From Escherichia virus TH44, in the sequence record MT446415.1: a DNA stretch of 64,000 nucleotides. One strand, given 5' to 3'. Shown in pieces: positions 3,032 through 41,609 of the stretch. Made by a program: the position numbers and the translations under genes. Each line of letters opens with the position of its first letter. Within the stretch, counting starts at the first letter, position 1. The notes below the pieces were generated by a model that did no database searches, was not told the DNA's origin, and saw only the letters and a list, made by a program, of their open reading frames with translations.

Positions 3032-3215
3032 TATGGAACTGTTTGATAAGGCTATCCATAAAGAATACCGTGTTATCCAACGATTTTTTGATATAAGAGA
3101 AGCTGAAGAGTTTAAAGAACGCTTCAAAGAAATCCGTATTAAAATAGCTTCAGACACCGCAACAAAGGATGAACTTCTTGAAGTTGCAGAATTAATCAAA
3201 CGTAACATAAAGTGA
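3012..3215 (+). CDS. hypothetical early protein (67 aa)
   Basis: ATG 3012 after ggagattgg SD; track ORF begins at an upstream TTG. Confidence 0.45.
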   Translation: MTNFKVNMELFDKAIHKEYRVIQRFFDIREAEEFKERFKEIRIKIASDTATKDELLEVAELIKRNIK

Positions 3216-3222
3216 GAAAAAC

Positions 3223-5457
3223 ATGATTTTAGAAACTGAAAAGGAAACAATCCTTGGTAATGGCGCCAAGGCATCAGCATTCACAATCCAGGCATCTCCG
3301 AAGGTGTTTAAGATTCTGACCAGCGACCTTTATACAAACAAGGTGCGCGCGGTTGTCCGTGAGCTGATTACCAATATGATTGATGCTCATATGCTCAATG
3401 GCTGTCAGGATAAATTCATTGTGCAAGCTCCTGGTGAACTGGACCCACGTTTTGTATGCCGTGACTTCGGTCCGGGTATGAGTGATTTCCAGATTCGTGG
3501 TGATGAAAATACCCCAGGTCTGTATAACAGTTTCTTTGCATCATCCAAGGCTGAATCCAACGATTTTATTGGTGGCTTTGGTCTGGGTTCTAAATCTCCG
3601 TTTAGTTATACAGAGACGTTTAGCCTGATTTCATATCATGATGGACAAGTTAATGGTTATGTCGCTTATATGGACGGCGATGGTCCACAGATTAAGCCAA
3701 CCTTTAGCGAACCAATGAAACCTGGTGACCGCACAGGGATTGAAGTTGTTGTCCCGGTTGATAGTAATGATTTCGGTAAGTTCCGTTATGAGATTGCATA
3801 TATCATGCGTCCATTTGCTGGGCTGGCTGAAGTGCAAGGCGTGAACGAAATTGAATACTTCCCGGAATTTGATGATTATTATGCTCCAGCGCGTATTAAT
3901 TATAGCAGTCCAGAACGTTATGGACTTTATGCAATTTACGGCGGTATTGTTTATCCGATTGGTGACGGTTATACAAAGAAAACCTGGATGACTGCCAAAA
4001 ATGATGTTGTCTTTATTAAGTTCCCGATGGGTTCGTTGGATATTGCACCTTCTCGCGAAGCATTATCGCTGGACAAACGTACGGTCGCAAATATCGTTGA
4101 ACGTATTGAATCGCTTGATAAGAAGGTCATGGAAGATGATTGTAAGAAATGGCAGGAATCAGAATGTCTCCGCCATACATATCGCGAATTGCAGAGTCTG
4201 AATTATGAAGCTCGTAATTTTCTGAAAGCTCGTAATGCTGAAACGAAATTTACGAAATCACAATTGACCTTTAACCAGATGTACGAAATGTTCGAGCTGG
4301 ACAAAGACCTTATTAATGCCGGGGTTGTCTATGATATCTATAGCACTACTCGTCTGAAACGTCTGCGTAACTCAAGCTCGAACACGAATACTGCAAGCCT
4401 GACAAGCATGTTTGGTATTCATAATGATACCTTGAATATTGTTATTGACGATGCTAAAGGGCGAATTGCGATGATTCGGGGCATCAGTTCAATGCTGTAT
4501 GACACCAGCGCGAAAGCCAAAAAGCTCAAAGCATCTGGTAAAGTCCCGACTGTACAAGGTAGTAGTCTATTGTTCGTTGACCCAACCAGCGAAATTCAAA
4601 CACGGTTGATGGTTCAACTCCAGGAACGATTTAAAGGCGATACGGTTAATATCTATCGTACGTCTGAACTGACTGCCCTTGTAAAAGACTGGATTCCGGT
4701 TGCGGACCCGAAAGAGCGTGTTAAGTCAAAGACTCCATCGGTGATTCGTTGGACTAAAACCAATGGTCGCTGGCAGTCTGTTGAAGAATTTACATGTGCA
4801 GCTGATGCAGAGGAAATCGATGGTTATGCTGTATTCATTAACCGCAGTAGCATTTCCCCTTTGAATCAAGAATATGGCACCACGACCTTCGGTACCCAGA
4901 CATTGTGTAAACTGGCGAATCTATTGGAAATCAATGAATTCTGTGTTATTCGTCCACAGCTTCAGAAAAAGGTTACAAAGCTGGCGCAGTGCGATTGTCT
5001 GATTGAAGCTGCAGTCAATCGTTATGTGGAATTGATTGATGCGGTTGATGCGGACCAGTACATTGCCGCTTCAAGCCGTTCGCGTTATTATATTCCTATC
5101 CTGTCTGAATATGCAGAACTGAATTTTATGTTCAAGTATTTTTATGCGAAAGATGTTCAGAAAGATGTGAATACTGATTATGCCGAACTAATGCAGTTCA
5201 ATAAGTTCTTTGCTTATAACGCATATAACAGTGGAACGGTTGATAAGACCATGCAGGAAACGCTGGTCCTTTGTAATAAGATTTATGACGACCTGACCAA
5301 AAACGCTTCGGTAACAAGCGATAAAATGGTTTTTGAATTTGAAAAGAATCACCCGATTGTTTCACACTTTTTATATAACCGTAACGCTATGTCAACTGAA
5401 CAAGTACAGAACGTTGCTCAAATCATGAAGGCCGTGGAAGCGGCCAATAAGGAATAA
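3223..5457 (+). CDS. rIIA: rIIA membrane-associated protein (lysis inhibition / exclusion-related, HATPase-like N-domain)
   Basis: 744 aa; synteny 39-rIIA-rIIB; length and N-terminal ATPase-like region as in T4 rIIA (725 aa). Confidence 0.9.
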   Translation: MILETEKETILGNGAKASAFTIQASPKVFKILTSDLYTNKVRAVVRELITNMIDAHMLNGCQDKFIVQAPGELDPRFVCRDFGPGMSDFQIRGDENTPGLYNSFFASSKAESNDFIGGFGLGSKSPFSYTETFSLISYHDGQVNGYVAYMDGDGPQIKPTFSEPMKPGDRTGIEVVVPVDSNDFGKFRYEIAYIMRPFAGLAEVQGVNEIEYFPEFDDYYAPARINYSSPERYGLYAIYGGIVYPIGDGYTKKTWMTAKNDVVFIKFPMGSLDIAPSREALSLDKRTVANIVERIESLDKKVMEDDCKKWQESECLRHTYRELQSLNYEARNFLKARNAETKFTKSQLTFNQMYEMFELDKDLINAGVVYDIYSTTRLKRLRNSSSNTNTASLTSMFGIHNDTLNIVIDDAKGRIAMIRGISSMLYDTSAKAKKLKASGKVPTVQGSSLLFVDPTSEIQTRLMVQLQERFKGDTVNIYRTSELTALVKDWIPVADPKERVKSKTPSVIRWTKTNGRWQSVEEFTCAADAEEIDGYAVFINRSSISPLNQEYGTTTFGTQTLCKLANLLEINEFCVIRPQLQKKVTKLAQCDCLIEAAVNRYVELIDAVDADQYIAASSRSRYYIPILSEYAELNFMFKYFYAKDVQKDVNTDYAELMQFNKFFAYNAYNSGTVDKTMQETLVLCNKIYDDLTKNASVTSDKMVFEFEKNHPIVSHFLYNRNAMSTEQVQNVAQIMKAVEAANKE

Positions 5458-7987: not shown

Positions 7988-8143
7988 ATGAAACCTGCTC
8001 AATATGCAATGACTTTATACCTTGAAGTTAATGGCGATATTACTGAATTTTTTAAATTAATGCAACAGCGCGGAAAAAGTTTTGCAGTTACTGAGCGTCA
8101 ATTTTACGCTTGCCGTAAAAATACATACAATCGTTATGCGTGA
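7988..8143 (+). CDS. small hypothetical protein (51 aa)
   Basis: ATG at end of cassette, stop 8141-8143. Confidence 0.35.
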   Translation: MKPAQYAMTLYLEVNGDITEFFKLMQQRGKSFAVTERQFYACRKNTYNRYA

Positions 8144-8153
8144 GGAAAACAAA

Positions 8154-8414
8154 ATGGATATCAAATTATATTACGCCAAGCACAAAGTTACAGGTAAAGT
8201 TGTTGCTGCCATGTATGATGCATCGGGTGAAGATGTTATTACGGAATTATCCCTTTCTAATTGTAGATTTCTTCGTCCTTTGATAGCGTCAAAAAAAGAT
8301 TTACAAAAACTTATCGACGGTAAATTAGATAATGTCGATGGTATAGATATCCATTATGAACTCCGCCATGCACTGAATGATGGGTTTATGGAAATAAAAG
8401 AGATAGTATTATGA
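8154..8414 (+). CDS. hypothetical protein (86 aa)
   Basis: ATG 8154 after gaggaaaacaaa SD. Confidence 0.5.
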   Translation: MDIKLYYAKHKVTGKVVAAMYDASGEDVITELSLSNCRFLRPLIASKKDLQKLIDGKLDNVDGIDIHYELRHALNDGFMEIKEIVL

Positions 8415-8501
8415 GCAGCAAAACCTGGTGTCTTATCTGGATATTGTGTATCCCAGTAATTTGCGTTTGTTTTAGTTTATTATTAATGAAACTTGCATAA
8501 A

Positions 8502-8559
8502 AAAGTGTACATCTCCAGTGGTTGTAGTATAATGAACCTATCAACTACTGGAGATGATT
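8502..8559 (+). promoter_or_regulatory. early promoter cassette (PeSL-like), type B
   Basis: aaaagTGTACa, TATAAT 8528-8533, then gaacctatcaactactggag motif. Confidence 0.55.
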
Positions 8560-8676
8560 ATGAAAAAGTTACTTAAAGCTATTTGGAACATGTTTGTGCT
8601 GTTTGTTGTCCTGAGCATTTTCCCAATTGTTTTTATGATTGACCATGTGCGTGTTTACTTTAACTATTTCTTTTGA
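8560..8676 (+). CDS. small hydrophobic membrane peptide (38 aa)
   Basis: ATG 8560 7 nt after ggag; one predicted TM segment. Confidence 0.3.
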   Translation: MKKLLKAIWNMFVLFVVLSIFPIVFMIDHVRVYFNYFF

Positions 8677-8686
8677 GGATAATATT

Positions 8687-8893
8687 ATGAATTACAATTC
8701 ACACTTTCAGAAATCCAATCGTCGCTTTGACTTTATGTTCAAGTTTATTGTAGCAATGATTATCCTGATTTTCATTGGTGCCATTGCAATGATTGGTTTC
8801 CAGGTCTGGATTGCTGCTGAAGTATTCACCCAAATCCAGGATAATGGTTTGAAGTCTGTTGTTGATGTAATTTGGAATGGAGCTAAGCAATGA
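8687..8893 (+). CDS. small membrane protein (68 aa)
   Basis: ATG 8687 after gaggataatatt; central hydrophobic helix. Confidence 0.45.
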   Translation: MNYNSHFQKSNRRFDFMFKFIVAMIILIFIGAIAMIGFQVWIAAEVFTQIQDNGLKSVVDVIWNGAKQ

Positions 8894-9135
8894 AACTTTT
8901 TAAAGACATTGCAGTTGGTGAAAAATTTGTCCTGGGTAATGGTCAACAACTGATTCGCATTTCGCCTTTAATGGATAACAGTGAACGCCCTGTGCGCACT
9001 GAAAACTGTTTGGATTATCCTTTTTATCAGAAGCGTTTTGCAATTGAAAATAATACTGAGTGTTTCACAGTTGATGAACTGATGGAATCATCAGAAGAAG
9101 TTGACTTGTGGGATGGCGCAGTTGATGTAGAATAG
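8890..9135 (+). CDS. hypothetical protein (81 aa)
   Basis: ORF with ATGA start-stop overlap to the previous gene. Confidence 0.5.
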   Translation: MKLFKDIAVGEKFVLGNGQQLIRISPLMDNSERPVRTENCLDYPFYQKRFAIENNTECFTVDELMESSEEVDLWDGAVDVE

Positions 9136-9203
9136 TGTACAAACTCTTGGGAGCAGAGTATAATGCTCCCAGTGGATAATAAAATTTAACTGAGGAAATC
9201 ATT
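9133..9203 (+). promoter_or_regulatory. early promoter cassette (PeSL-like), type C
   Basis: agTGTACAaactcttGGGAGCAgagTATAATgcTCCCagtgg; -10 sits in loop of gggagca/tgctccc inverted repeat. Confidence 0.6.
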
Positions 9204-9548
9204 ATGTCTAAAGTATTTTTTGGTAATCGCAACATTATGTTCTTTAAACAGATTAGCGTATCAGAAGCATTTGATTTAAGTTATTCGGGCGGCACAAAAG
9301 CTGTTAACCTTAAAAATTTGATGTCTGCAGAATTTGCATTCTATCAGGACCCTGAAACTGGTTTCTACAAATTTATTAAGTTCCGCATGACTATGGACCG
9401 CGATTATCGTGATGTTTATTATACAAGTTATGAAAGTGTTGTGAATGCAATTCGTGAAGCTTATGGATTGGATTCGTTATCTCTTGACCGCCTGTATAAT
9501 GCAAGCCTTTACACCAGCGGATTTATTTTAGAACAGCTTCAAAAATAG
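9204..9548 (+). CDS. hypothetical protein (114 aa)
   Basis: ORF after cassette and gaggaaatcatt SD. Confidence 0.5.
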   Translation: MSKVFFGNRNIMFFKQISVSEAFDLSYSGGTKAVNLKNLMSAEFAFYQDPETGFYKFIKFRMTMDRDYRDVYYTSYESVVNAIREAYGLDSLSLDRLYNASLYTSGFILEQLQK

Positions 9549-9621
9549 TGTACAAACTCTTGGGGTCAGAGTATAATGACCCCACTGGAGCACAAAACTT
9601 TAACTTACTGAGGAAATTAAT
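9546..9621 (+). promoter_or_regulatory. early promoter cassette (PeSL-like), type C
   Basis: near-identical to 9133 cassette: agtgtacaaactcttggggtcagagTATAATgacccc. Confidence 0.6.
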
Positions 9622-10071
9622 ATGAATACTTACATGACCCGTCGTGACGTACTGAATGCTGGCGCTACCACTGTTGCTTACATCCATAATGGTAATTATG
9701 TCGCCGGTCGCCCAACTAAAGAAGCTATCACCCAACCGGGTTTTTATTTTGTAGTTAAGGGTGAAGGTGAATCGCGTATTGTTGCGGCACGTTTTTACGT
9801 TGGTAACCAACGTTCACAACAAGGGTTTGACACTGTATTAAGTCACATCCGCAAACAGCGTTCACAACTGTCGCGCACAATGGCGAACAATGGTGTTATC
9901 TATGAAGTTCTGTTTGTTCCGGTTTCTAAAATGAAGCCTCTGACAACTGGTTATGGTAAAGGTCAAATTGCAATGGCGTTCACTCGCTCACATAGTTCTG
10001 ATTGCCAGACCCTTTCAGAAATGAATCGCATGCTTGCTGATAACTTTAAATTCATTCTGCAGAGCTATTAA
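9622..10071 (+). CDS. ndd: nucleoid disruption protein Ndd
   Basis: 149 aa; similarity to T4 Ndd incl. [23 protein letters not shown] and C-terminal [12 protein letters not shown]. Confidence 0.8.
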
Positions 10072-10072
10072 T

Positions 10073-10246
10073 ATGAGACATTTCTTTACAATGGGTTACT
10101 TATTTGTTTTAGCACTATTTGTTATTACAGGAGCCTTTATAGCCTTTGGCGCTCCATTTAATGATAAAGTTGCTGTTACTATGTGCTTTAGTGGCGGATT
10201 TATCTGTTTTGAACGTTTATGTAAAATGTGTGGTATATATGAGTAA
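10073..10246 (+). CDS. small membrane protein (57 aa)
   Basis: ATG 10073 overlapping ndd stop; hydrophobic. Confidence 0.4.
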
Positions 10247-10319
10247 TTTCCATAATGAACATGTGATGCAATGGCATCGCCATAATCTGAAATTAACTGG
10301 CGTCTTTGGACGCCCTTGA
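10239..10319 (+). CDS. stp: Stp peptide (26 aa; anti-restriction peptide that triggers PrrC anticodon nuclease)
   Basis: [26 protein letters not shown] is near-identical to T4 Stp; not in ORF track (<60 aa). Confidence 0.8.
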
Positions 10320-10326
10320 GGAAAAT

Positions 10327-10485
10327 ATGATTATTCTGGCTTTTATCGAACTTATTATTGCCGTGGTTTGTTCAGTCTGCTTCTTTTTAGGAGTCTGGAC
10401 TCCAAGCACATTTTTCATGGGCGCGATGTTTATTGCATGGGTTATTTCTGGAATTGTAAGTCTGGCGCGGTATGCGAAAAAATGA
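10327..10485 (+). CDS. small membrane protein (52 aa), candidate for T4 ac-like gene
   Basis: ATG 10327 after gaggaaaat; two hydrophobic segments. Confidence 0.35.
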   Translation: MIILAFIELIIAVVCSVCFFLGVWTPSTFFMGAMFIAWVISGIVSLARYAKK

Positions 10486-10622
10486 TTAAGAAAATCTTGG
10501 GCTACTCGTTAGCCCTTGCTGCCTTATTGGTAGCGCTGTATTATGGAGTTGTATTTGCATTAGTGCAGGTTGTGCTTTTTATTTCTGATGCTATAATGGC
10601 AGTACATTCGTTAATCTGGTAA
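10482..10622 (+). CDS. small membrane protein (46 aa)
   Basis: ATGA overlap with previous ORF; hydrophobic. Confidence 0.35.
   Translation: MIKKILGYSLALAALLVALYYGVVFALVQVVLFISDAIMAVHSLIW
10572..10598 (+). promoter_or_regulatory. candidate middle promoter for gene 52
   Basis: TGCTTTT 10573-10579, 13-nt spacer, TATAAT 10593-10598. Confidence 0.3.
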
Positions 10623-10630
10623 GGTGATAT

Positions 10631-12010
10631 ATGTCTGACGTTTTAAGTATGATGTCCAAACAGTTCAGTGATTCCATGGGGACCCTTAACCCACGCAGTC
10701 TAAAAGACATTATTGATGTGGAAGCATTATCATATGCTATCTACACTGTGGAAGGTCGCGCAATCCCAAACATGATTGATGGTTTTAAACCAGTTCACAG
10801 ATTTGTTATGGCGAGAGCATTAGACCTGGCACGTGGTGATAAGAATAAATTCCATAAGGTTGCATCCATCGCAGGTGGCGTAGCTGATTATGGTTATCAC
10901 CATGGCGAAGCATCAGCGGAAGAAGCAACTTCTGGTCTGGTCGCAACATATAAAAATGAATACCCCATGTTTGATGGACAAGGCAACTTTGGTTCCAGAA
11001 TGGTGCCAGAAGCATCATCAGCTCGTTATGTATTCGCACGGGTTTCAAAGAACTTTTATAACTTGTTTAAGGATACAGAATATGCTCCGGTCCATCCTGA
11101 TGAAGAACATAAGCCTCCTGCTTTTTATCTTCCTGTTATTCCTACTGTATTACTTAACGCCACTTCTGGGATTGCTGTTGGCTTCGCTACTGATATTCTG
11201 CCTCATTCGTTCCAGGACGTCAAGGAAGCTGTTAAAGCTATCGTGGAAGGTCGGGAGCCGGTTGCTCCGAAAGTAAAATATCCAGAATTCCGCGGTAAAG
11301 TTGTTGAGCTGGAAGAGCCTGGTAAGTATGAGCTTCATGGCACGTACAAAATGACTTCCAGGACCCAAATGGAAATTACTGAAATCCCGGTCCAATGGAA
11401 CCTGGAAAAGTATACAAGTAAAATCCTGGACCCGCTGGAAGAGAAAGGTTTTATCACCTGGAAAGATAACTGCGGCGAGCATGGTTTTGGGTTTAAGATT
11501 AAATTCCGCAAAGAATACAAGCTGGATGGCACCGAAGAAGAAAATCATGAGAAAATCATGAAAGACTTTGGTCTGATTGAGAAGCTCTCCCAGAACTTAA
11601 CAGTGCTTAATCACAAAGGCAAGCTGGCTGAATACACCAACACGCTTGACCTGATTCGTGATTTCGTTGATGTCCGTAAGACTTATGTTCAAGTGCGAAT
11701 TGACAGTAAGATTAAAGAAACTGAAGCGGCATTTAAACTGGCCCGGGCAAAAGTCTTCTTTATTAAAGAAGTGATTGATGGTAAAGTTGTTATCCAGGGG
11801 AAACCTCGTAAGAAGTTGATTGAGGAACTCCAGGCGAGTGAAATATATGGCGATTATGCAGAGAAGTTAGTGGCGATGAACATCTACCATATGACCTCTG
11901 ATGAAGCTAAGAAGCTTGCGGATGAAGCTAAGGCTAAGAAAGCTGAGCATGAGTACTGGAAGACAACTGACGTTAAAACTGAATATCTTAATGATTTGGA
12001 GGCTCTATGA
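10631..12010 (+). CDS. 52: DNA topoisomerase II medium subunit (GyrA-like)
   Basis: 459 aa; N-terminus matches T4 gp52 pattern. Confidence 0.9.
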   Translation: MSDVLSMMSKQFSDSMGTLNPRSLKDIIDVEALSYAIYTVEGRAIPNMIDGFKPVHRFVMARALDLARGDKNKFHKVASIAGGVADYGYHHGEASAEEATSGLVATYKNEYPMFDGQGNFGSRMVPEASSARYVFARVSKNFYNLFKDTEYAPVHPDEEHKPPAFYLPVIPTVLLNATSGIAVGFATDILPHSFQDVKEAVKAIVEGREPVAPKVKYPEFRGKVVELEEPGKYELHGTYKMTSRTQMEITEIPVQWNLEKYTSKILDPLEEKGFITWKDNCGEHGFGFKIKFRKEYKLDGTEEENHEKIMKDFGLIEKLSQNLTVLNHKGKLAEYTNTLDLIRDFVDVRKTYVQVRIDSKIKETEAAFKLARAKVFFIKEVIDGKVVIQGKPRKKLIEELQASEIYGDYAEKLVAMNIYHMTSDEAKKLADEAKAKKAEHEYWKTTDVKTEYLNDLEAL

Positions 12011-12096
12011 GCATAGAAAATGAATACGCAGTGATTTGTGCTGCTGTAGCTGGCCTGTTGATTGCCTGGGTTATTGGCAAAGTGATTGATTCTTAA
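12007..12096 (+). CDS. small hydrophobic peptide (29 aa)
   Basis: ATG overlaps gp52 stop; single TM-like segment; followed by terminator. Confidence 0.3.
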   Translation: MSIENEYAVICAAVAGLLIAWVIGKVIDS

Positions 12097-12101
12097 AAAC
12101 T

Positions 12102-12130
12102 AGGACCCTTCAGGGTCCTTTTTTATTTTA
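12102..12130 (+). terminator. intrinsic terminator aggacccttcagggtcct + T-run
   Basis: GC hairpin followed by ttttttatttt. Confidence 0.6.
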
Positions 12131-12217
12131 AAAAAGTAGTGTACAATCCCCTTGTCTTAGGACATAATGATTCCATACTGAGTTACACAATGAATCACAA
12201 AAACTTTGGAGAATAAA
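12131..12217 (+). promoter_or_regulatory. early promoter cassette (PeSL-like), type A
   Basis: aaaaagtagTGTACAa ... CATAAT 12163-12168, gattccatactgagttacac...ggagaataaaATG. Confidence 0.55.
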
Positions 12218-12433
12218 ATGTTTACTGCACAACAGAATGAAGGTCAAGAATACATCAACGCTAAATTCAAATCTAACAAAGAAGCTTGCTATTACTACTT
12301 TGATATGTTCAAACTGGCGAATTCTAAAGAAGAACGTAAACAAGCGATTGATGTGATTGTTTCTACTTCCCATATGAAACGTACTGTAGTACAATCATAT
12401 GCATCAAATTACATGAAATCTATTAAGGGATAA
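12218..12433 (+). CDS. hypothetical protein (71 aa)
   Basis: ATG 12218 at end of cassette. Confidence 0.5.
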   Translation: MFTAQQNEGQEYINAKFKSNKEACYYYFDMFKLANSKEERKQAIDVIVSTSHMKRTVVQSYASNYMKSIKG

Positions 12434-12435
12434 TT

Positions 12436-13044
12436 GTGAACAAGTTAAATTATATCGTTAAATGCTCCCAGAACGCGCTGCATGAGACTGATGTTAATGC
12501 TCTGGTGTTTGTATACAAAAACAACTTCGTGAGTCCAGAGGTTGTTTTAGACCAGCAGAATACATCAATTGATAGTGTGCAGACATTGTTGAATAACAAC
12601 TATGTTGAAGCTTCTGGTGATGGTTTGATGGTTACAGAAAAGGGTGTTGACCTTATTCTGGATGCAGCTGAACTTTGGGCGAATGAAAATAATCCTGACC
12701 TTCTGGAAGTGAAGAAGACAAGAACAAAACGCGGTGTGACTGATGAAATGGAAGCGACTGCAGAATATATCAAAGAGCAATTGTTGTCTATTGGTATTGA
12801 CTTTAAGAGCATTTCAGAAGACCGCAGCAATCTGATTGTGAAGTTCAAGCGTGTCAAGACATTAAAACAGATTGATGTTCGTCGTGATGGTCAGATTCGC
12901 GTACATGCGTATAATACTGAACAAAAGATAGTAAAACAGTTTACAGACGTGGGATTTAGCGTTAAAGTAGGTGGATTGAATACCTACATTGACAACGTTA
13001 TGTCAACTGAAAACATTCAACATGTTATTAACATCTTAAAGTGA
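12436..13044 (+). CDS. motA: middle transcription activator MotA
   Basis: 202 aa, GTG start; similarity to T4 MotA incl. SGDGL motif; position between 52 and asiA. Confidence 0.8.
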   Translation: MNKLNYIVKCSQNALHETDVNALVFVYKNNFVSPEVVLDQQNTSIDSVQTLLNNNYVEASGDGLMVTEKGVDLILDAAELWANENNPDLLEVKKTRTKRGVTDEMEATAEYIKEQLLSIGIDFKSISEDRSNLIVKFKRVKTLKQIDVRRDGQIRVHAYNTEQKIVKQFTDVGFSVKVGGLNTYIDNVMSTENIQHVINILK

Positions 13045-36766: not shown

Positions 36767-37177
36767 ATGAAACAAATCGCTGATGAATACAGTTTTATAA
36801 AATACGCGGAGTTGGAGTTAGTCGATGGTAAAATCCCTATCCTTACTCTCGCAAACAAGAAAAATGTTATCTATGCTATTTCAGTTGATGATGAACTAGT
36901 GTATATTGGTAAGACGAACAACCTTAAGAAGCGTATCAACTATTACCGGACTGCAATTAACCGAATCGAACAGACGAGTGATTCAAACAAATCCCGGATG
37001 ATACATGAAGCTTTACAAGAAGGCAAAAAGGTGGTATTCTATGCACGGCAATGTTTCAATCTGTCAATGACCAATGAACTTGGCACAATGTCAGTCGAAA
37101 CGATGTCTCTGGAAGAGCCGATGTTCATCAAGCTTTTTAATCCCCCGTGGAATTACCAACATAAGGTGAAGAAATGA
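36767..37177 (+). CDS. denA: endonuclease II (GIY-YIG family)
   Basis: strong similarity to T4 EndoII (EYSFIKY.ELEL, NVIYAI..DDELVYIGKT.NL.KRINYYRTAINR, FYARQCFNLSMTNELGTM). Confidence 0.85.
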   Translation: MKQIADEYSFIKYAELELVDGKIPILTLANKKNVIYAISVDDELVYIGKTNNLKKRINYYRTAINRIEQTSDSNKSRMIHEALQEGKKVVFYARQCFNLSMTNELGTMSVETMSLEEPMFIKLFNPPWNYQHKVKK

Positions 37178-38310
37178 TTGAATTATATGATAACTTAATG
37201 AAGCTTTGCGCCGAATCCGATAAAGGTAAGTTTTTCTATACGGATTTTGTTTCTCCATTTGAAACTAAGTTCCGCATCTTTAGCTATAACTATGCTTCCT
37301 ATAGTGATTGGCTTCTTGATGATGCGCTGGAGTGTCGTGGTATTATGTTTGAAATGGATGCTAATGGCCCAGTTCGCATTGCCGCCCGTCCTATGGAAAA
37401 ATTCTTTAATCTGGGTGAGAATCCAATGACCATGGACCTTAACCTTGATGAGGTTGTCCTGGTTACTGCAAAAGCTGATGGTAGTTTGGTTTCTACTTAT
37501 ATGGACCAGACTAATATCGCCTTTAAATCCAAAGGGTCAATCAAAAGCTCCCAGGCTGCTGAATCCTTGCAGGTGTTTAAACAAGAGCATCGCAGTGCAT
37601 TCAGGGCTCGCGTAACTGAAATCACTGAAGCTGGTTATACATGCAATATGGAATATGTTGCACCAACCAACCGCATTGTTTTGCCTTACCAGGAACGTGA
37701 CCTGATTTTACTGAACGTTCGTCATAATGAAACGGGCGAATATATTCCTTATCAGGAACTGTTCAAAGATGCTGCACTCCGTCCTTTCCTGGTTGAAGCA
37801 TATGACCCGGCGAGCATTGAGAATGTTCGTGGTATGAAAGAGATTGAAGGCTTCGTCTACGAGTTGGCAAGTGGTCAGAAGTTCAAGATGAAAACAGAAT
37901 GGTATTGTGCTCTGCATCATACTAAAGACTCCATTAATAATAATGAGCGACTGTTTGAAGTTGTTGTTGCTGGCGGGGCAGATGATGTTATTGCCATGTT
38001 TACTGGCGATAATTATGCTCGCGAAAAAGTTAATGCCTTTACTGTAACGCATCTGGATTATCTGTCCAATACGCTGGGATTGTTGCTTGATGCTCAGAAA
38101 CAATTGGCAGGAAAAGACCGTCGCGAGTTTGCGATTAAAGGTCAAGAGTTGTGCAAACCATACCCGGGATTGTTCTCCGTATTAATGAACACCTATCAAC
38201 GCCCACAGGAAACTGAACAAACGATTGCTCAAATCAATAAAGTTTTCCTTAAAAATCATAAACTTTACATTCCGTCGGACTACCAAGCGGAAGTAATCCT
38301 TCCTGAATAA
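37174..38310 (+). CDS. rnlA: RNA ligase 1 (tail fiber attachment catalyst)
   Basis: 378 aa; similarity to T4 gp63 (FRIFSYNYASYSDWLL.DALECRGIMFEMD, KEDGSLVSTY). Confidence 0.9.
   Translation: MIELYDNLMKLCAESDKGKFFYTDFVSPFETKFRIFSYNYASYSDWLLDDALECRGIMFEMDANGPVRIAARPMEKFFNLGENPMTMDLNLDEVVLVTAKADGSLVSTYMDQTNIAFKSKGSIKSSQAAESLQVFKQEHRSAFRARVTEITEAGYTCNMEYVAPTNRIVLPYQERDLILLNVRHNETGEYIPYQELFKDAALRPFLVEAYDPASIENVRGMKEIEGFVYELASGQKFKMKTEWYCALHHTKDSINNNERLFEVVVAGGADDVIAMFTGDNYAREKVNAFTVTHLDYLSNTLGLLLDAQKQLAGKDRREFAIKGQELCKPYPGLFSVLMNTYQRPQETEQTIAQINKVFLKNHKLYIPSDYQAEVILPE

Positions 38311-40391: not shown

Positions 40392-41609
<1,218 letters not shown>

Follow-up and report, generated by a model that had tools for sequence, protein, structure and literature searches.

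Introduction

Stp of bacteriophage T4 (NP_049878; Pfam PF08133, "Anticodon nuclease activator family") inhibits the type Ic restriction systems EcoprrI and EcoR124I, has no such effect on type Ia systems, and activates the anticodon nuclease PrrC (PMC3014915; PMC12707154). The N-proximal 18 residues of the peptide are critical, while the C-terminal 8 are largely dispensable (PMC3014915; PMC12707154), and suppressor mutations in stp, which abolish PrrC activation, cluster at residues 4–14 (PMC3014915). In T4 the surrounding genes stand in the order ndd-stp-ac-52.1-52. Ac renders T4-infected cells sensitive to acriflavine, an acridine sensitivity phenotype that was genetically defined in T4, and one proposal is that the protein blocks the AcrAB-TolC pump (bioRxiv 10.1101/2025.06.30.662393).

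The window considered here, the whole 64,000-nt stretch of DNA that was analyzed, derives from a Gaprivervirus, a T4-like coliphage, and includes the ndd-to-gene-52 early segment. We consider it very probable that this segment is an ordinary T4-like early block in which ndd is followed by five small genes and which encodes a bona fide Stp together with early small membrane proteins.

Materials and Methods

Loci for comparison were obtained by an Ndd-anchored search (15 loci), by tblastn searches against the phages in GenBank, and by scanning with a degenerate DNA pattern. Promoters and terminators were called as consensus matches only.

Results

Gene Order and Coding Capacity

Four stacked micro-genes occupy the plus strand between ndd and gene 52 (Table 1), in the order ndd-X-stp-Y-52.1-52; these open reading frames, as well as the peptides at 8560 and 12007, are present exactly where the sequence-only reading had placed them. 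All four are conserved protein-coding genes: each micro-ORF matches a PHROG family from end to end (E = 1e-19 to 1e-23), and dN/dS against diverged homologues ranges from 0 to 0.46. None of the four peptides has a model in NCBIfam. Very short genes (26–57 codons) that are missed by length-limited ORF tracks are, in this segment, real.

Table 1. Features of the ndd-to-gene-52 segment and related features elsewhere in the window.
Feature	Position	Strand	Basis
ndd, nucleoid disruption protein, 149 aa	9622..10071	+	99% identity to annotated Ndd of VR25, UPEC01; 61% to T4 Ndd
Gene X, 57-aa membrane protein	10073..10246	+	phrog_5941 match, dN/dS
stp, 26 aa, B-type allele	10239..10319	+	PF08133, phrog_6763, VR25 identity
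RNA hairpin in stp codons 21–25	10299..10314	+	MFE fold, pairing kept in variants
Gene Y, 52 aa	10327..10485	+	phrog_9347 match, dN/dS
Gene 52.1, 46-aa membrane protein, DUF7396	10482..10622	+	PF24129, T4 gp52.1 identity
Gene 52, DNA topoisomerase II medium subunit; bounds the cluster downstream	10631..12010	+	
29-aa single-span hydrophobic peptide	12007..12096	+	phrog_28787, full-length match
Ndd.4 homologue, single-span membrane peptide, 38–40 aa by ATG choice (8554 or 8560)	8554..8676	+	
rnlA (RNA ligase 1) homologue	37174..38283	+	tblastn with T4 RnlA
pseT (polynucleotide kinase/phosphatase) homologue	40708..41607	+	tblastn with T4 PseT
Early-promoter-like site, TGTACA-17-TATAAT	9549..9577	+	Consensus match
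Terminator-like hairpin, bidirectional	12102..12119	.	AGGACCC-TTCA-GGGTCCT, then T-run

A Stp Family Peptide of a Distinct Allele

The Pfam and PHROG matches of the 26-aa product, and its location with ndd on one side and gene 52 on the other, identify it as a genuine Stp family member. It matches PF08133 with 55.3 bits (gathering score 25; E = 4.4e-15) over model positions 1–25 of 26 and phrog_6763 with E = 2e-19, and it is a free-standing peptide of 26 codons with its own start (ATG at 10239, TGA at 10317–10319), for which the sequence predicts a soluble, basic, and His-rich character. The sequence-only reading had described this peptide as near-identical to T4 Stp and had quoted for it the inhibition of type Ic restriction and the triggering of PrrC, the role that the literature gives to T4 Stp (PMC3014915; PMC12707154). 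When the alignment with T4 was run it held, the first 11 residues being identical, and family membership stands; near-identity does not, since only 20 of 26 residues (77%) are shared and the peptide is a separate allele.

The six substitutions relative to T4 are F12W, Y13H, N15H, T19L, K20T, and Q26P; both peptides have 26 residues, of which 1–11, 14, 16–18, and 21–25 are common to the two. The differences are clustered in codons 11–20, with codons 1–10 and 21–25 almost unchanged, and the Pfam score is lower here than for T4 Stp (55 vs. 75 bits). Within the N-proximal 18-residue core 15 positions are identical to T4, and the three that differ (12, 13, and 15) vary too in other family members above the Pfam threshold; the invariant core residues of the family are all intact.

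This B-type allele (W12, H13, H15, L19, T20, P26) is perfectly conserved. The peptides of the Gaprivervirus phages VR7, VR20, and VR25 and that of the first stp copy in JS98-like Dhakavirus phages are 100% identical to the one in the window, B-type copies differ by 0 nonsynonymous and up to 5 synonymous changes, and dN/dS against the T4 type is 0.12–0.17. The allele is unchanged across two phage genera and is therefore, as far as conservation can tell, functional; its adaptation may be to another variant of the target. The cluster as such is already known and contains nothing new: in RefSeq the identical Stp of VR25 is already annotated as "activator of host PrrC lysyl-tRNA endonuclease" (YP_009210023).

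Distribution of Stp Alleles

Stp alleles are discrete. The peptide matched 740 phage records, 39 at ≥99% identity and 441 at 80–90%, with only two at 90–99%. Both alleles occur in Dhakavirus, where JS98-like phages carry an intact B copy and a start-less A copy, an arrangement that looks like allele replacement. Stp-family peptides, mostly unannotated, are also common in siphophages of ~45–50 kb, and in Drexlerviridae the Stp-family genes adjoin pnk.

A broader reading, which we advance only tentatively and regard as possible rather than probable, is that Stp, far from being peculiar to T-even phages, constitutes a pan-phage anti-restriction family in which tiny cassettes carrying the alleles pass among unrelated phages (Tevenvirinae, Kagunavirus, Drexlerviridae, and Cedarrivervirus-like phages), the present allele (W12-H13-x-H15...L19-T20) being a specificity variant. 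As part of the same tentative reading, the variable residues 12–20 would pick the type I complex or PrrC-like sentinel, and the invariant MS[NS][FW]HNEH[VI]MQ head would provide a common binding mode. If this were true, the pairing of Stp with pnk in Drexlerviridae would mean that the trigger-and-repair arms race over tRNA is widespread, beyond T4 and E. coli CT196; the survey itself suggests that Stp-family peptides are far more widespread than the searchable literature indicates.

Positions 12 and 13 fall in the stretch of residues 4–14 in which T4 mutations abolish PrrC activation, and because of this the B-type peptide might not trigger PrrC, or might recognize a different target. B-type Stp would then be an escape or re-targeted allele, which either performs anti-restriction without tripping PrrC or is directed at another type I family or sentinel. 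This we judge unlikely. In its favor are the clustering of the differences in codons 11–20, with two of them in the hot zone for PrrC activation, the discreteness of the alleles, the presence of both in Dhakavirus, and the replacement-like pattern of the JS98 group; against it, the invariant core of the family is untouched, and the phage keeps intact pnk and rnlA genes, as would be expected if PrrC-type damage still threatened. Pnk and RNA ligase 1 repair the damage done by PrrC. The PseT homologue in the window is 78% identical to T4 PseT over 301/301 residues (E = 3e-160), and the RnlA homologue is 51% identical to T4 RnlA over 374/374 residues (E = 8e-123).

Gene X and the Start of stp

The ATG of gene X lies 1 nt past the ndd stop codon. 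Its product has a long hydrophobic run at residues 3–30, a shorter one at residues 33–46, and a conserved tail, FERLCKMCG(I/V)Y(E/K), and it matches phrog_5941 with E = 2e-23 over 57/57 positions. Matches were found in 221 phage records, with no less than 80% of the query covered in every one and identities of 33–98% among the matches listed, in many of which ndd is annotated at or beside the X match. Klebsiella phages account for 161 of the 221 records; Marfa, the one examined in detail, is without stp.

The stp frame is open upstream as far as an ATG at 10161, and two GenBank records, UPEC01 and UPEC07, annotate a 52-aa Stp that begins there. Taken at face value, Stp would be an N-terminally extended protein with a hydrophobic leader (10161–10319), and the overlapping 57-aa frame X would be no gene. 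We regard this as very improbable. Over the overlap, dN/dS of the stp frame is mostly near or above 1 (0.34–2.0 across comparisons), whereas substitutions in the X frame are concentrated at third codon positions and give dN/dS of 0.03–0.37; calculated over X, the other two frames give ~0.3–2, mostly near or above 1. The full-length match of X to its family and its recurrence in 221 records are also at odds with a spurious frame, and no Shine-Dalgarno sequence precedes 10161. Finally, where phages lack X, the start of stp follows immediately on the ndd stop, and the conserved unit is therefore one of 25–26 aa. The 52-aa annotation probably stems from gene callers whose output leaves out very short genes; stp and its neighbors are frequently unannotated or mis-annotated, with UPEC01 and UPEC07 calling stp as a 52-aa fusion.

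Gene Y, Gene 52.1, and Other Small Membrane Peptides

The hydropathy profile of Y has two peaks split by a GVWTP turn and is followed by a basic C-terminal tail. Y matches phrog_9347 (E = 5.5e-20) and was found in 87 phage records, each match spanning 80% or more of the query (36–98% identity among the matches listed), with dN/dS of 0.07–0.46. The 52.1 product scores 71.8 bits against PF24129 (DUF7396; cut-off 27), and its dN/dS is ~0.1 against the T4 and Dhakavirus copies. Upstream of the cluster, the Ndd.4 homologue matches phrog_3098 (E = 2e-23) and is 59% identical to T4 Ndd.4; a tblastn search of the window with T4 MotA.1 gave no match, so no similarity of MotA.1 to the 12007 peptide was found.

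Among these small neighbors of stp the best 19-residue Kyte-Doolittle windows reach 2.3–2.9 and charge-free runs extend for 14–39 residues, in agreement with the sequence-only reading, which had called the flanking ORFs of 46–57 aa hydrophobic; one or two membrane spans are predicted for each of X, Y, and 52.1. That reading had also termed the membrane peptides unassigned, which remains apt for their function but not for their families: X and Y belong to phrog_5941 and phrog_9347, respectively, 52.1 to the gp52.1/PF24129 family, and the peptide at 8560 is the Ndd.4 homologue. The products of X, Y, and 52.1 are small proteins of the inner membrane, made early in infection and with one or two predicted spans, and so are the Ndd.4-, Ndd.6-, and 12007-type peptides. 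It is hardly credible that stp is the only gene and that the hydrophobic micro-ORFs stay open by chance in AT-rich intergenic DNA: they are indeed short, mostly missing from standard gene calls, and often unannotated in GenBank, but each has dN/dS well below 1 and full-length family matches (at least 80% cover down to ~33–40% identity, in many genera), the geometry of translational coupling is preserved, and 52.1 belongs to a curated Pfam family.

The sole functional clue is Ac, which occupies the corresponding slot in T4; by analogy with it, the most likely role that we infer for the membrane peptides is to bind host inner-membrane machinery (transport, efflux, or envelope-linked defense or exclusion) and to modulate it. 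The analogy is weak, since none of the peptides is related to Ac or to any of the others (hhalign probability <1%). A mutual relationship of X, Y, Ac, and 52.1 was rejected on these probabilities, all of which were <1%, and so was the derivation of Y from Ac by divergence: Ac belongs to phrog_2501 and Y to phrog_9347, with an hhalign probability of 0.4%. No Ac-type gene was found in the window.

Expression Signals and the Hairpin at the 3′ End of stp

The early-promoter-like site listed in Table 1 is the last such site upstream of ndd and is nearly identical to one at 9136–9164; none lies inside the cluster. Promoter-like sites in the region number 19, which is not above the shuffled expectation of 14.9 ± 4.1, and the MotA-box middle-promoter pattern was not found in 8000–12600. 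The site at 9549 is the likely start of a transcript that would span the cluster, and the bidirectional hairpin downstream of the 12007 peptide the likely end of the transcription unit. The stp ATG lies inside the last X codons (8-nt overlap), Y is preceded by a strong ribosome-binding site (GAGGA, 10318–10322), and the ATG codons of 52.1 and of the 12007 peptide overlap the stop codons of Y and gene 52, respectively (ATGA in both cases).

Codons 21–25 of stp, which encode GVFGR, form an RNA hairpin, GGCGUC-UUUG-GACGCC; downstream of it come the stp stop, then the Shine-Dalgarno sequence, and the Y ATG. Its minimum free energy (MFE) is −10.8 kcal/mol, it is the sole such site in the window, and 6/6 pairs are kept in all 7 sequence variants of T4-like loci; the junction at the 3′ end of stp, ...TGAGGAAAATATG, is conserved regardless of the downstream gene. 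An Rfam search (E up to 1) gave weak matches only, to implausible families and all far below gathering scores. The possibility that the C-terminal GVFG(R) of Stp is kept solely for the RNA hairpin was rejected: Kagunavirus-type copies keep KTKGVFG, written in other codons and forming no hairpin, and the peptide itself must therefore be under constraint. In T-even phages, to which it is specific, the hairpin comes on top of this.

Discussion

The locus places the textbook interface of anti-restriction and abortive infection (Stp, type Ic restriction-modification with PrrC, Pnk plus Rnl1) in a Gaprivervirus phage. If the ordinary T4-like early block favored above functions as T4 does, transcription would probably run from the promoter upstream of ndd to the terminator at 12102, and the small genes would be translated by coupling or from their own ribosome-binding sites. 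Early in infection Stp would bind host type Ic restriction-modification complexes (EcoprrI, EcoR124I) via its N-proximal 18 residues and block DNA cleavage. In the rare hosts that carry prrC within the type Ic locus, the same binding would release the latent anticodon nuclease specific for tRNA-Lys, and the phage polynucleotide kinase and RNA ligase 1, both encoded in the window, would undo the damage to the tRNA. A phage without an ac-type gene may, in addition, be naturally insensitive to acriflavine, a prediction only.

Among phages of this type the ndd-to-52 locus is a recombination mosaic with visible scars. In VR-type phages gene X is missing and the Y family is represented by its VR7-gp281 subtype, and the closest relatives over the whole locus, TH40 and EAWsc9, have an extra scar and an Ac-like gene that are absent here. 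As in the hyperplastic regions of T4-like phages, where promoter early stem-loop (PeSL) shuffling has been described (Arbiol, 2010; Comeau, 2014, PMC4122927), whole small genes vary between close relatives and scars are present; early-promoter elements are repeated (8506, 9136, and 9549), and the stem-loop, Shine-Dalgarno sequence, and ATG form a conserved junction. Unlike a complete PeSL, in which a sigma-70-type early promoter stands between the stem-loop and the Shine-Dalgarno sequence with its start codon, the junction at the 3′ end of stp has a stem-loop and a Shine-Dalgarno sequence but no promoter, for which there is no room because the gap from hairpin to ATG is only 12 nt. Judging from the scars, recombination took place within coding segments of stp and 52.1 that are conserved, and not at PeSLs.

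Compared with T4 itself, in which stp is coupled directly to ndd, the 57-aa gene X is here inserted between the two, and stp overlaps its 3′ end. Y takes the position of T4 Ac between stp and 52.1 and comes close to it in length (52 vs. 51 aa) and in the two peaks of its hydrophobic profile; the two families occur together in EcS1, JS98, and TH40 and are thus not simple alternatives. The 52.1 product is 40/46 identical (87%) to T4 gp52.1, also of 46 aa and likewise placed directly upstream of gene 52, with nothing notable that differs. As in T4, stp stands between ndd and small membrane genes upstream of gene 52, and the same phage encodes Pnk and Rnl1 as well as Stp.

Locus Layout and Coding Evidence

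By megablast the window belongs to Gaprivervirus (Straboviridae, Tevenvirinae); no identical record was found in the phage collection, and the best relatives show 93-96% identity across 86-97% of its first 25 kb. In T4 these genes run ndd, stp, ac, 52.1, 52, whereas the window has ndd, X, stp, Y, 52.1, 52, where X and Y are small ORFs. The sequence-only reading had placed Stp amid a cluster of tiny hydrophobic peptides; PHROG and Pfam matches, hydropathy and low dN/dS show the cluster to be real and rightly interpreted, and the coordinates, including those of peptides near 8560 and 12007, are all right. RefSeq records of the closest relatives already annotate stp, and its neighbors fall in known families; further work might pay on Stp allele structure, on the mosaic of cassettes and on how far Stp-like peptides have spread into siphophages. 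With the Ndd.6-like, Ndd.2a-matching and Ndd.1-like genes upstream, the run of small membrane-peptide genes spans at least 8411 to 12096.

Features of the window around stp, with the tRNA-repair homologues
Feature	Position	Strand	Length	Match
Ndd.6-like	8411-8500		29 aa	T4 ndd-region homologue, 46% identity
Early-promoter-like repeat	8506-8533
8554 ORF				phrog_3098, E = 2.3e-23
68-aa protein	8687-8893		68 aa	C-terminal part matches Ndd.2a
Ndd.1-like	8890-9135			51% identity
Early-promoter-like repeat	9136-9164
Early-promoter-like repeat	9549-9577
ndd	9622-10071	+	149 aa
X	10073-10246	+	57 aa	phrog_5941, E = 2e-23
stp	10239-10319	+	26 aa	phrog_6763, E = 2e-19
stp 3′ hairpin segment	10299-10329
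Y	10327-10485	+	52 aa	phrog_9347, E = 5.5e-20
52.1	10482-10622	+	46 aa	phrog_3595, E = 1.8e-23; PF24129/DUF7396, 71.8 bits
Topoisomerase gene 52	10631-12010	+
12007 ORF	12007-12096	+	29 aa	phrog_28787, E = 1.9e-23
Bidirectional terminator-like hairpin	12102-12119
rnlA	37174-38283			full-length homologue, 51% identity
pseT	40708-41607			full-length homologue, 78% identity

Each micro-ORF matches its PHROG family end to end, and the 46-aa product is identical to T4 gp52.1 at 40 of 46 positions. X occurs in 221 phage records (161 from Klebsiella phages), with at least 80% of its length covered in all and 33-98% identity among the matches listed; Marfa, the one of these Klebsiella phages examined in detail, lacks stp. 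Y occurs in 87 records. Nei-Gojobori estimates of dN/dS against homologues are 0.03-0.37 for X, with differences mostly at third codon positions, 0.07-0.46 for Y, and about 0.1 for 52.1 against the T4 and Dhakavirus copies.

Identity and Allele Structure of Stp

The 26-aa ORF had been read as Stp, and this is borne out by its phrog_6763 match, by 55.3 bits on Pfam PF08133 ("Anticodon nuclease activator family"; gathering score 25; T4 Stp, 75.3 bits), and by 100% identity to the VR25 gene named "activator of host PrrC lysyl-tRNA endonuclease" in RefSeq. Alignment with T4 Stp upholds the family but not the description "near-identical to T4," which overstates 20 identical positions of 26; residues 1-11 are the same, and the substitutions are F12W, Y13H, N15H, T19L, K20T, and Q26P. 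The peptide is hydrophilic (GRAVY -0.87, net charge +2, four histidines) and without a hydrophobic run. By tblastn, 740 phage records match it, 39 at ≥99% identity and 441 at 80-90% (the T4 type), with only two between 90 and 99%; judged from these alignments, the window carries a second, discrete allele (B-type) distinct from that of T4. B-type copies from two genera differ by no nonsynonymous and up to five synonymous changes, and dN/dS between B-type and T4 type is 0.12-0.17. Because W12, H13, and H15 each recur in other family members above the Pfam threshold and the allele is perfectly conserved, the B-type is probably functional, possibly with shifted specificity.

In T4, Stp is necessary and sufficient for activating the latent tRNA-Lys anticodon nuclease PrrC, and relieves restriction by EcoprrI and EcoR124I, both type Ic, but has no such effect on type Ia enzymes; most loss-of-activation mutations lie at residues 4-14, inside the N-proximal 18 residues, removal of the eight C-terminal codons lowers activity only moderately, and the cut tRNA is repaired by polynucleotide kinase and RNA ligase 1 (PMC3014915; PMC12707154). 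The function first quoted for T4 Stp, type Ic inhibitor and PrrC trigger, agrees with this literature. Since full-length homologues of pseT and rnlA are present, we infer that the same circuit of Stp, type Ic restriction, PrrC and tRNA repair would operate in this phage; the uncertainty rests with the allele, changed at positions 12 and 13 of the mutation-sensitive zone.

The stp frame stays open upstream as far as an ATG at 10161, and a 52-aa N-extended stp is annotated in two GenBank records, UPEC01 (L002 2062-2220) and UPEC07 (L004 3062-3220; L-numbers denote comparison loci from other phages, in their own coordinates). The extended product is taken to be an annotation artefact, because dN/dS of the stp frame across the X overlap is mostly near or above 1 (0.34-2.0 over comparisons), no Shine-Dalgarno sequence (SD) was found ahead of ATG 10161, and in phages without X stp begins immediately after ndd. 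Many Gaprivervirus and Tequatrovirus records (EAWsc9, ECML-359, the TH-series and others) lack annotation of stp, X, and Y altogether; there the tblastn match is assigned to no feature ("none") or to that of ndd.

Expression Signals and a Hairpin at the End of stp

The genes are tightly packed: X starts one base past the end of ndd, and stp has its ATG within X, eight bases short of the X stop. A GAGGA motif stands five bases in front of the Y start codon. The start of 52.1 shares bases with the Y stop (ATGA), as does that of the 12007 ORF with the stop of gene 52. The only early-promoter-like consensus match near the cluster is the 9549 repeat upstream of ndd; the consensus scan gave none within it. 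Past the 12007 ORF stands a strong terminator-like hairpin, likewise a consensus match. We infer that the cluster is co-transcribed.

Codons 21-25 of stp (GGC GUC UUU GGA CGC) fold into a hairpin of six pairs (-10.8 kcal/mol); immediately behind it come the stop codon and then the next gene's SD and ATG. The block GGCGTCTT(C/T)GGACGC..TGAGGAAAATATG is kept irrespective of the downstream gene, and all seven sequence variants seen retain six pairs, via G-U wobbles. The loop is UUUG in the window and UUCG in most relatives; the C(UUCG)G loop type is stable and occurs in T4 transcripts. The peptide itself is under constraint as well, since copies of the Kagunavirus type encode the same KTKGVFG by different codons and have no hairpin. 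Possible roles for the hairpin are mRNA stabilization, processing, or a recombination junction.

Membrane Peptides and the ac Position

In X, residues 3-30 form a run free of charged residues; a shorter run (33-46) follows, and after it the conserved tail FERLCKMCG(I/V)Y(E/K). Y is uncharged throughout residues 9-47, and this long stretch shows two hydropathy peaks with a dip between them at a GVWTP motif, a profile that fits a two-helix hairpin; in 52.1 (charge-free residues 5-35) such a hairpin is less clear because the dip at the YYG motif near the middle is much weaker, both topologies being estimates from hydropathy. The Ndd.4-like, Ndd.6-like, and 12007 peptides have a single charge-free run each. 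The membrane peptides of the cluster had been called unassigned, which holds for function but not for family, as they belong to recognized PHROG and Pfam families.

The sole functional lead, by analogy, would be the acridine-sensitivity protein Ac of T4, whose expression sensitizes E. coli to acriflavine and which has been proposed to interfere with the AcrAB-TolC pump (2025 preprint, bioRxiv 10.1101/2025.06.30.662393). T4 Ac belongs to phrog_2501 and Y to phrog_9347; when alignments assembled from the loci were compared profile to profile, Y and Ac scored a probability of 0.4%, and no other pairing of X, Y, Ac, and 52.1 reached 1%. Ac-type and Y-type genes occur together in EcS1, JS98, and TH40. 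Queries with T4, UPEC01, JS98, and KP179 Ac found no Ac-type gene anywhere in the window; natural insensitivity of the phage to acriflavine is therefore predicted, provided that no other small membrane protein stands in for Ac.

Stp-Like Peptides beyond T4-Like Phages

A scan of IMG/VR with a DNA pattern encoding HNEH[VI]MQ gave 69 loci with 71 matches. Start-anchored Stp-like ORFs account for 57 of these; almost all have 25-27 codons, and 44 are found outside T4-type contexts. A third subtype, MSNWHNEHIMQWYRRRIKAI(I/T)NSYE.., is found unannotated in Shigella phage Sf11 (NC_054636; L030 966-1046) and in about 25 IMG/VR loci (L035, L039, and L058 among them); it occupies a gap left unannotated in siphophages of 45-48 kb and has a strong SD (AAGGAG). 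In Drexlerviridae, unannotated ORFs of 25-26 aa overlap the stop of the preceding gene: MSSWHNEHVMQFYRQRIKKILNSTNC in the Escherichia BASEL phage JohannLBurckhardt (MZ501085; L102 2109-2189), about 480 bp upstream of a polynucleotide kinase gene (pnk), and the related MSSHHNEHVMQLYRHNLKSLGRLGK in P818 (ON062054; L031 2501-2578), 1.8 kb upstream of pnk. Stp and Pnk are thus paired outside T4-like phages too, pnk being 0.5-1.8 kb downstream; a full-text search of the open-access literature returned no paper linking Stp with Drexlerviridae. Scores on PF08133 are 35-41 bits over residues 1-18 (1-24 in P818), namely 35 for the Sf11 type and 36-41 for Drexlerviridae, and 70 for a nearly T4-type Stp in Kagunavirus siphophages (Raoultella phage RP180, L086 12484-12561; also L070, L079, L080), encoded close to holin and endolysin genes. 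Across their first 18 codons the RP180 and T4 stp genes agree at 48 of 54 nucleotides, a similarity that suggests the gene moved fairly recently from one phage family to another, unrelated one. In L068, loss of the stop codon fuses Stp to the following gene, giving a 74-aa product.

A Modular Locus

Comparison of 25 T4-like loci indicates that the ndd-to-52 segment is built from optional modules, for instance stp-Ac-52.1 in T4, stp-Y2-52.1 in VR25 (Y2 being its occupant of the Y position), X-stp-Ac'-52.1 in UPEC01, X-stp-Y-52.1 in the window, X-Y-52.1 in Marfa and X-Ac-Y-52.1-like in EcS1. TH40 (L020 1483-1582) and EAWsc9 (L021 1314-1413) carry a recombination scar between Y and an Ac-like gene, made of a 52.1 fragment (residues 1-14) and then an stp fragment (10-26 or 12-26); an entire 52.1 comes after the Ac-like gene. 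Taking this 255-bp block out of TH40 gives the arrangement of the window, as would result if sequence between the two 52.1 segments had been deleted. JS98-like Dhakavirus phages have an intact B-type stp and a second, T4-type copy (L008 ~3360-3490; L010 ~3192-3322) with its ATG lost (CGG), F4S, and a 52.1 fragment in front, likewise a recombination scar. This mosaic behavior fits the hyperplastic regions described in T4-like phages (PMC4122927). The three early-promoter-like repeats are near-identical (TGTACA-N16/17-TATAAT), the 9136 and 9549 copies having the hexamers and most of the spacer in common (TGTACAAACTCTTGGG..CAGAGTATAAT), and each stands upstream of a small-gene module; they resemble the repeated promoter elements of T4-like phages that are said to drive module shuffling (PMC4122927).
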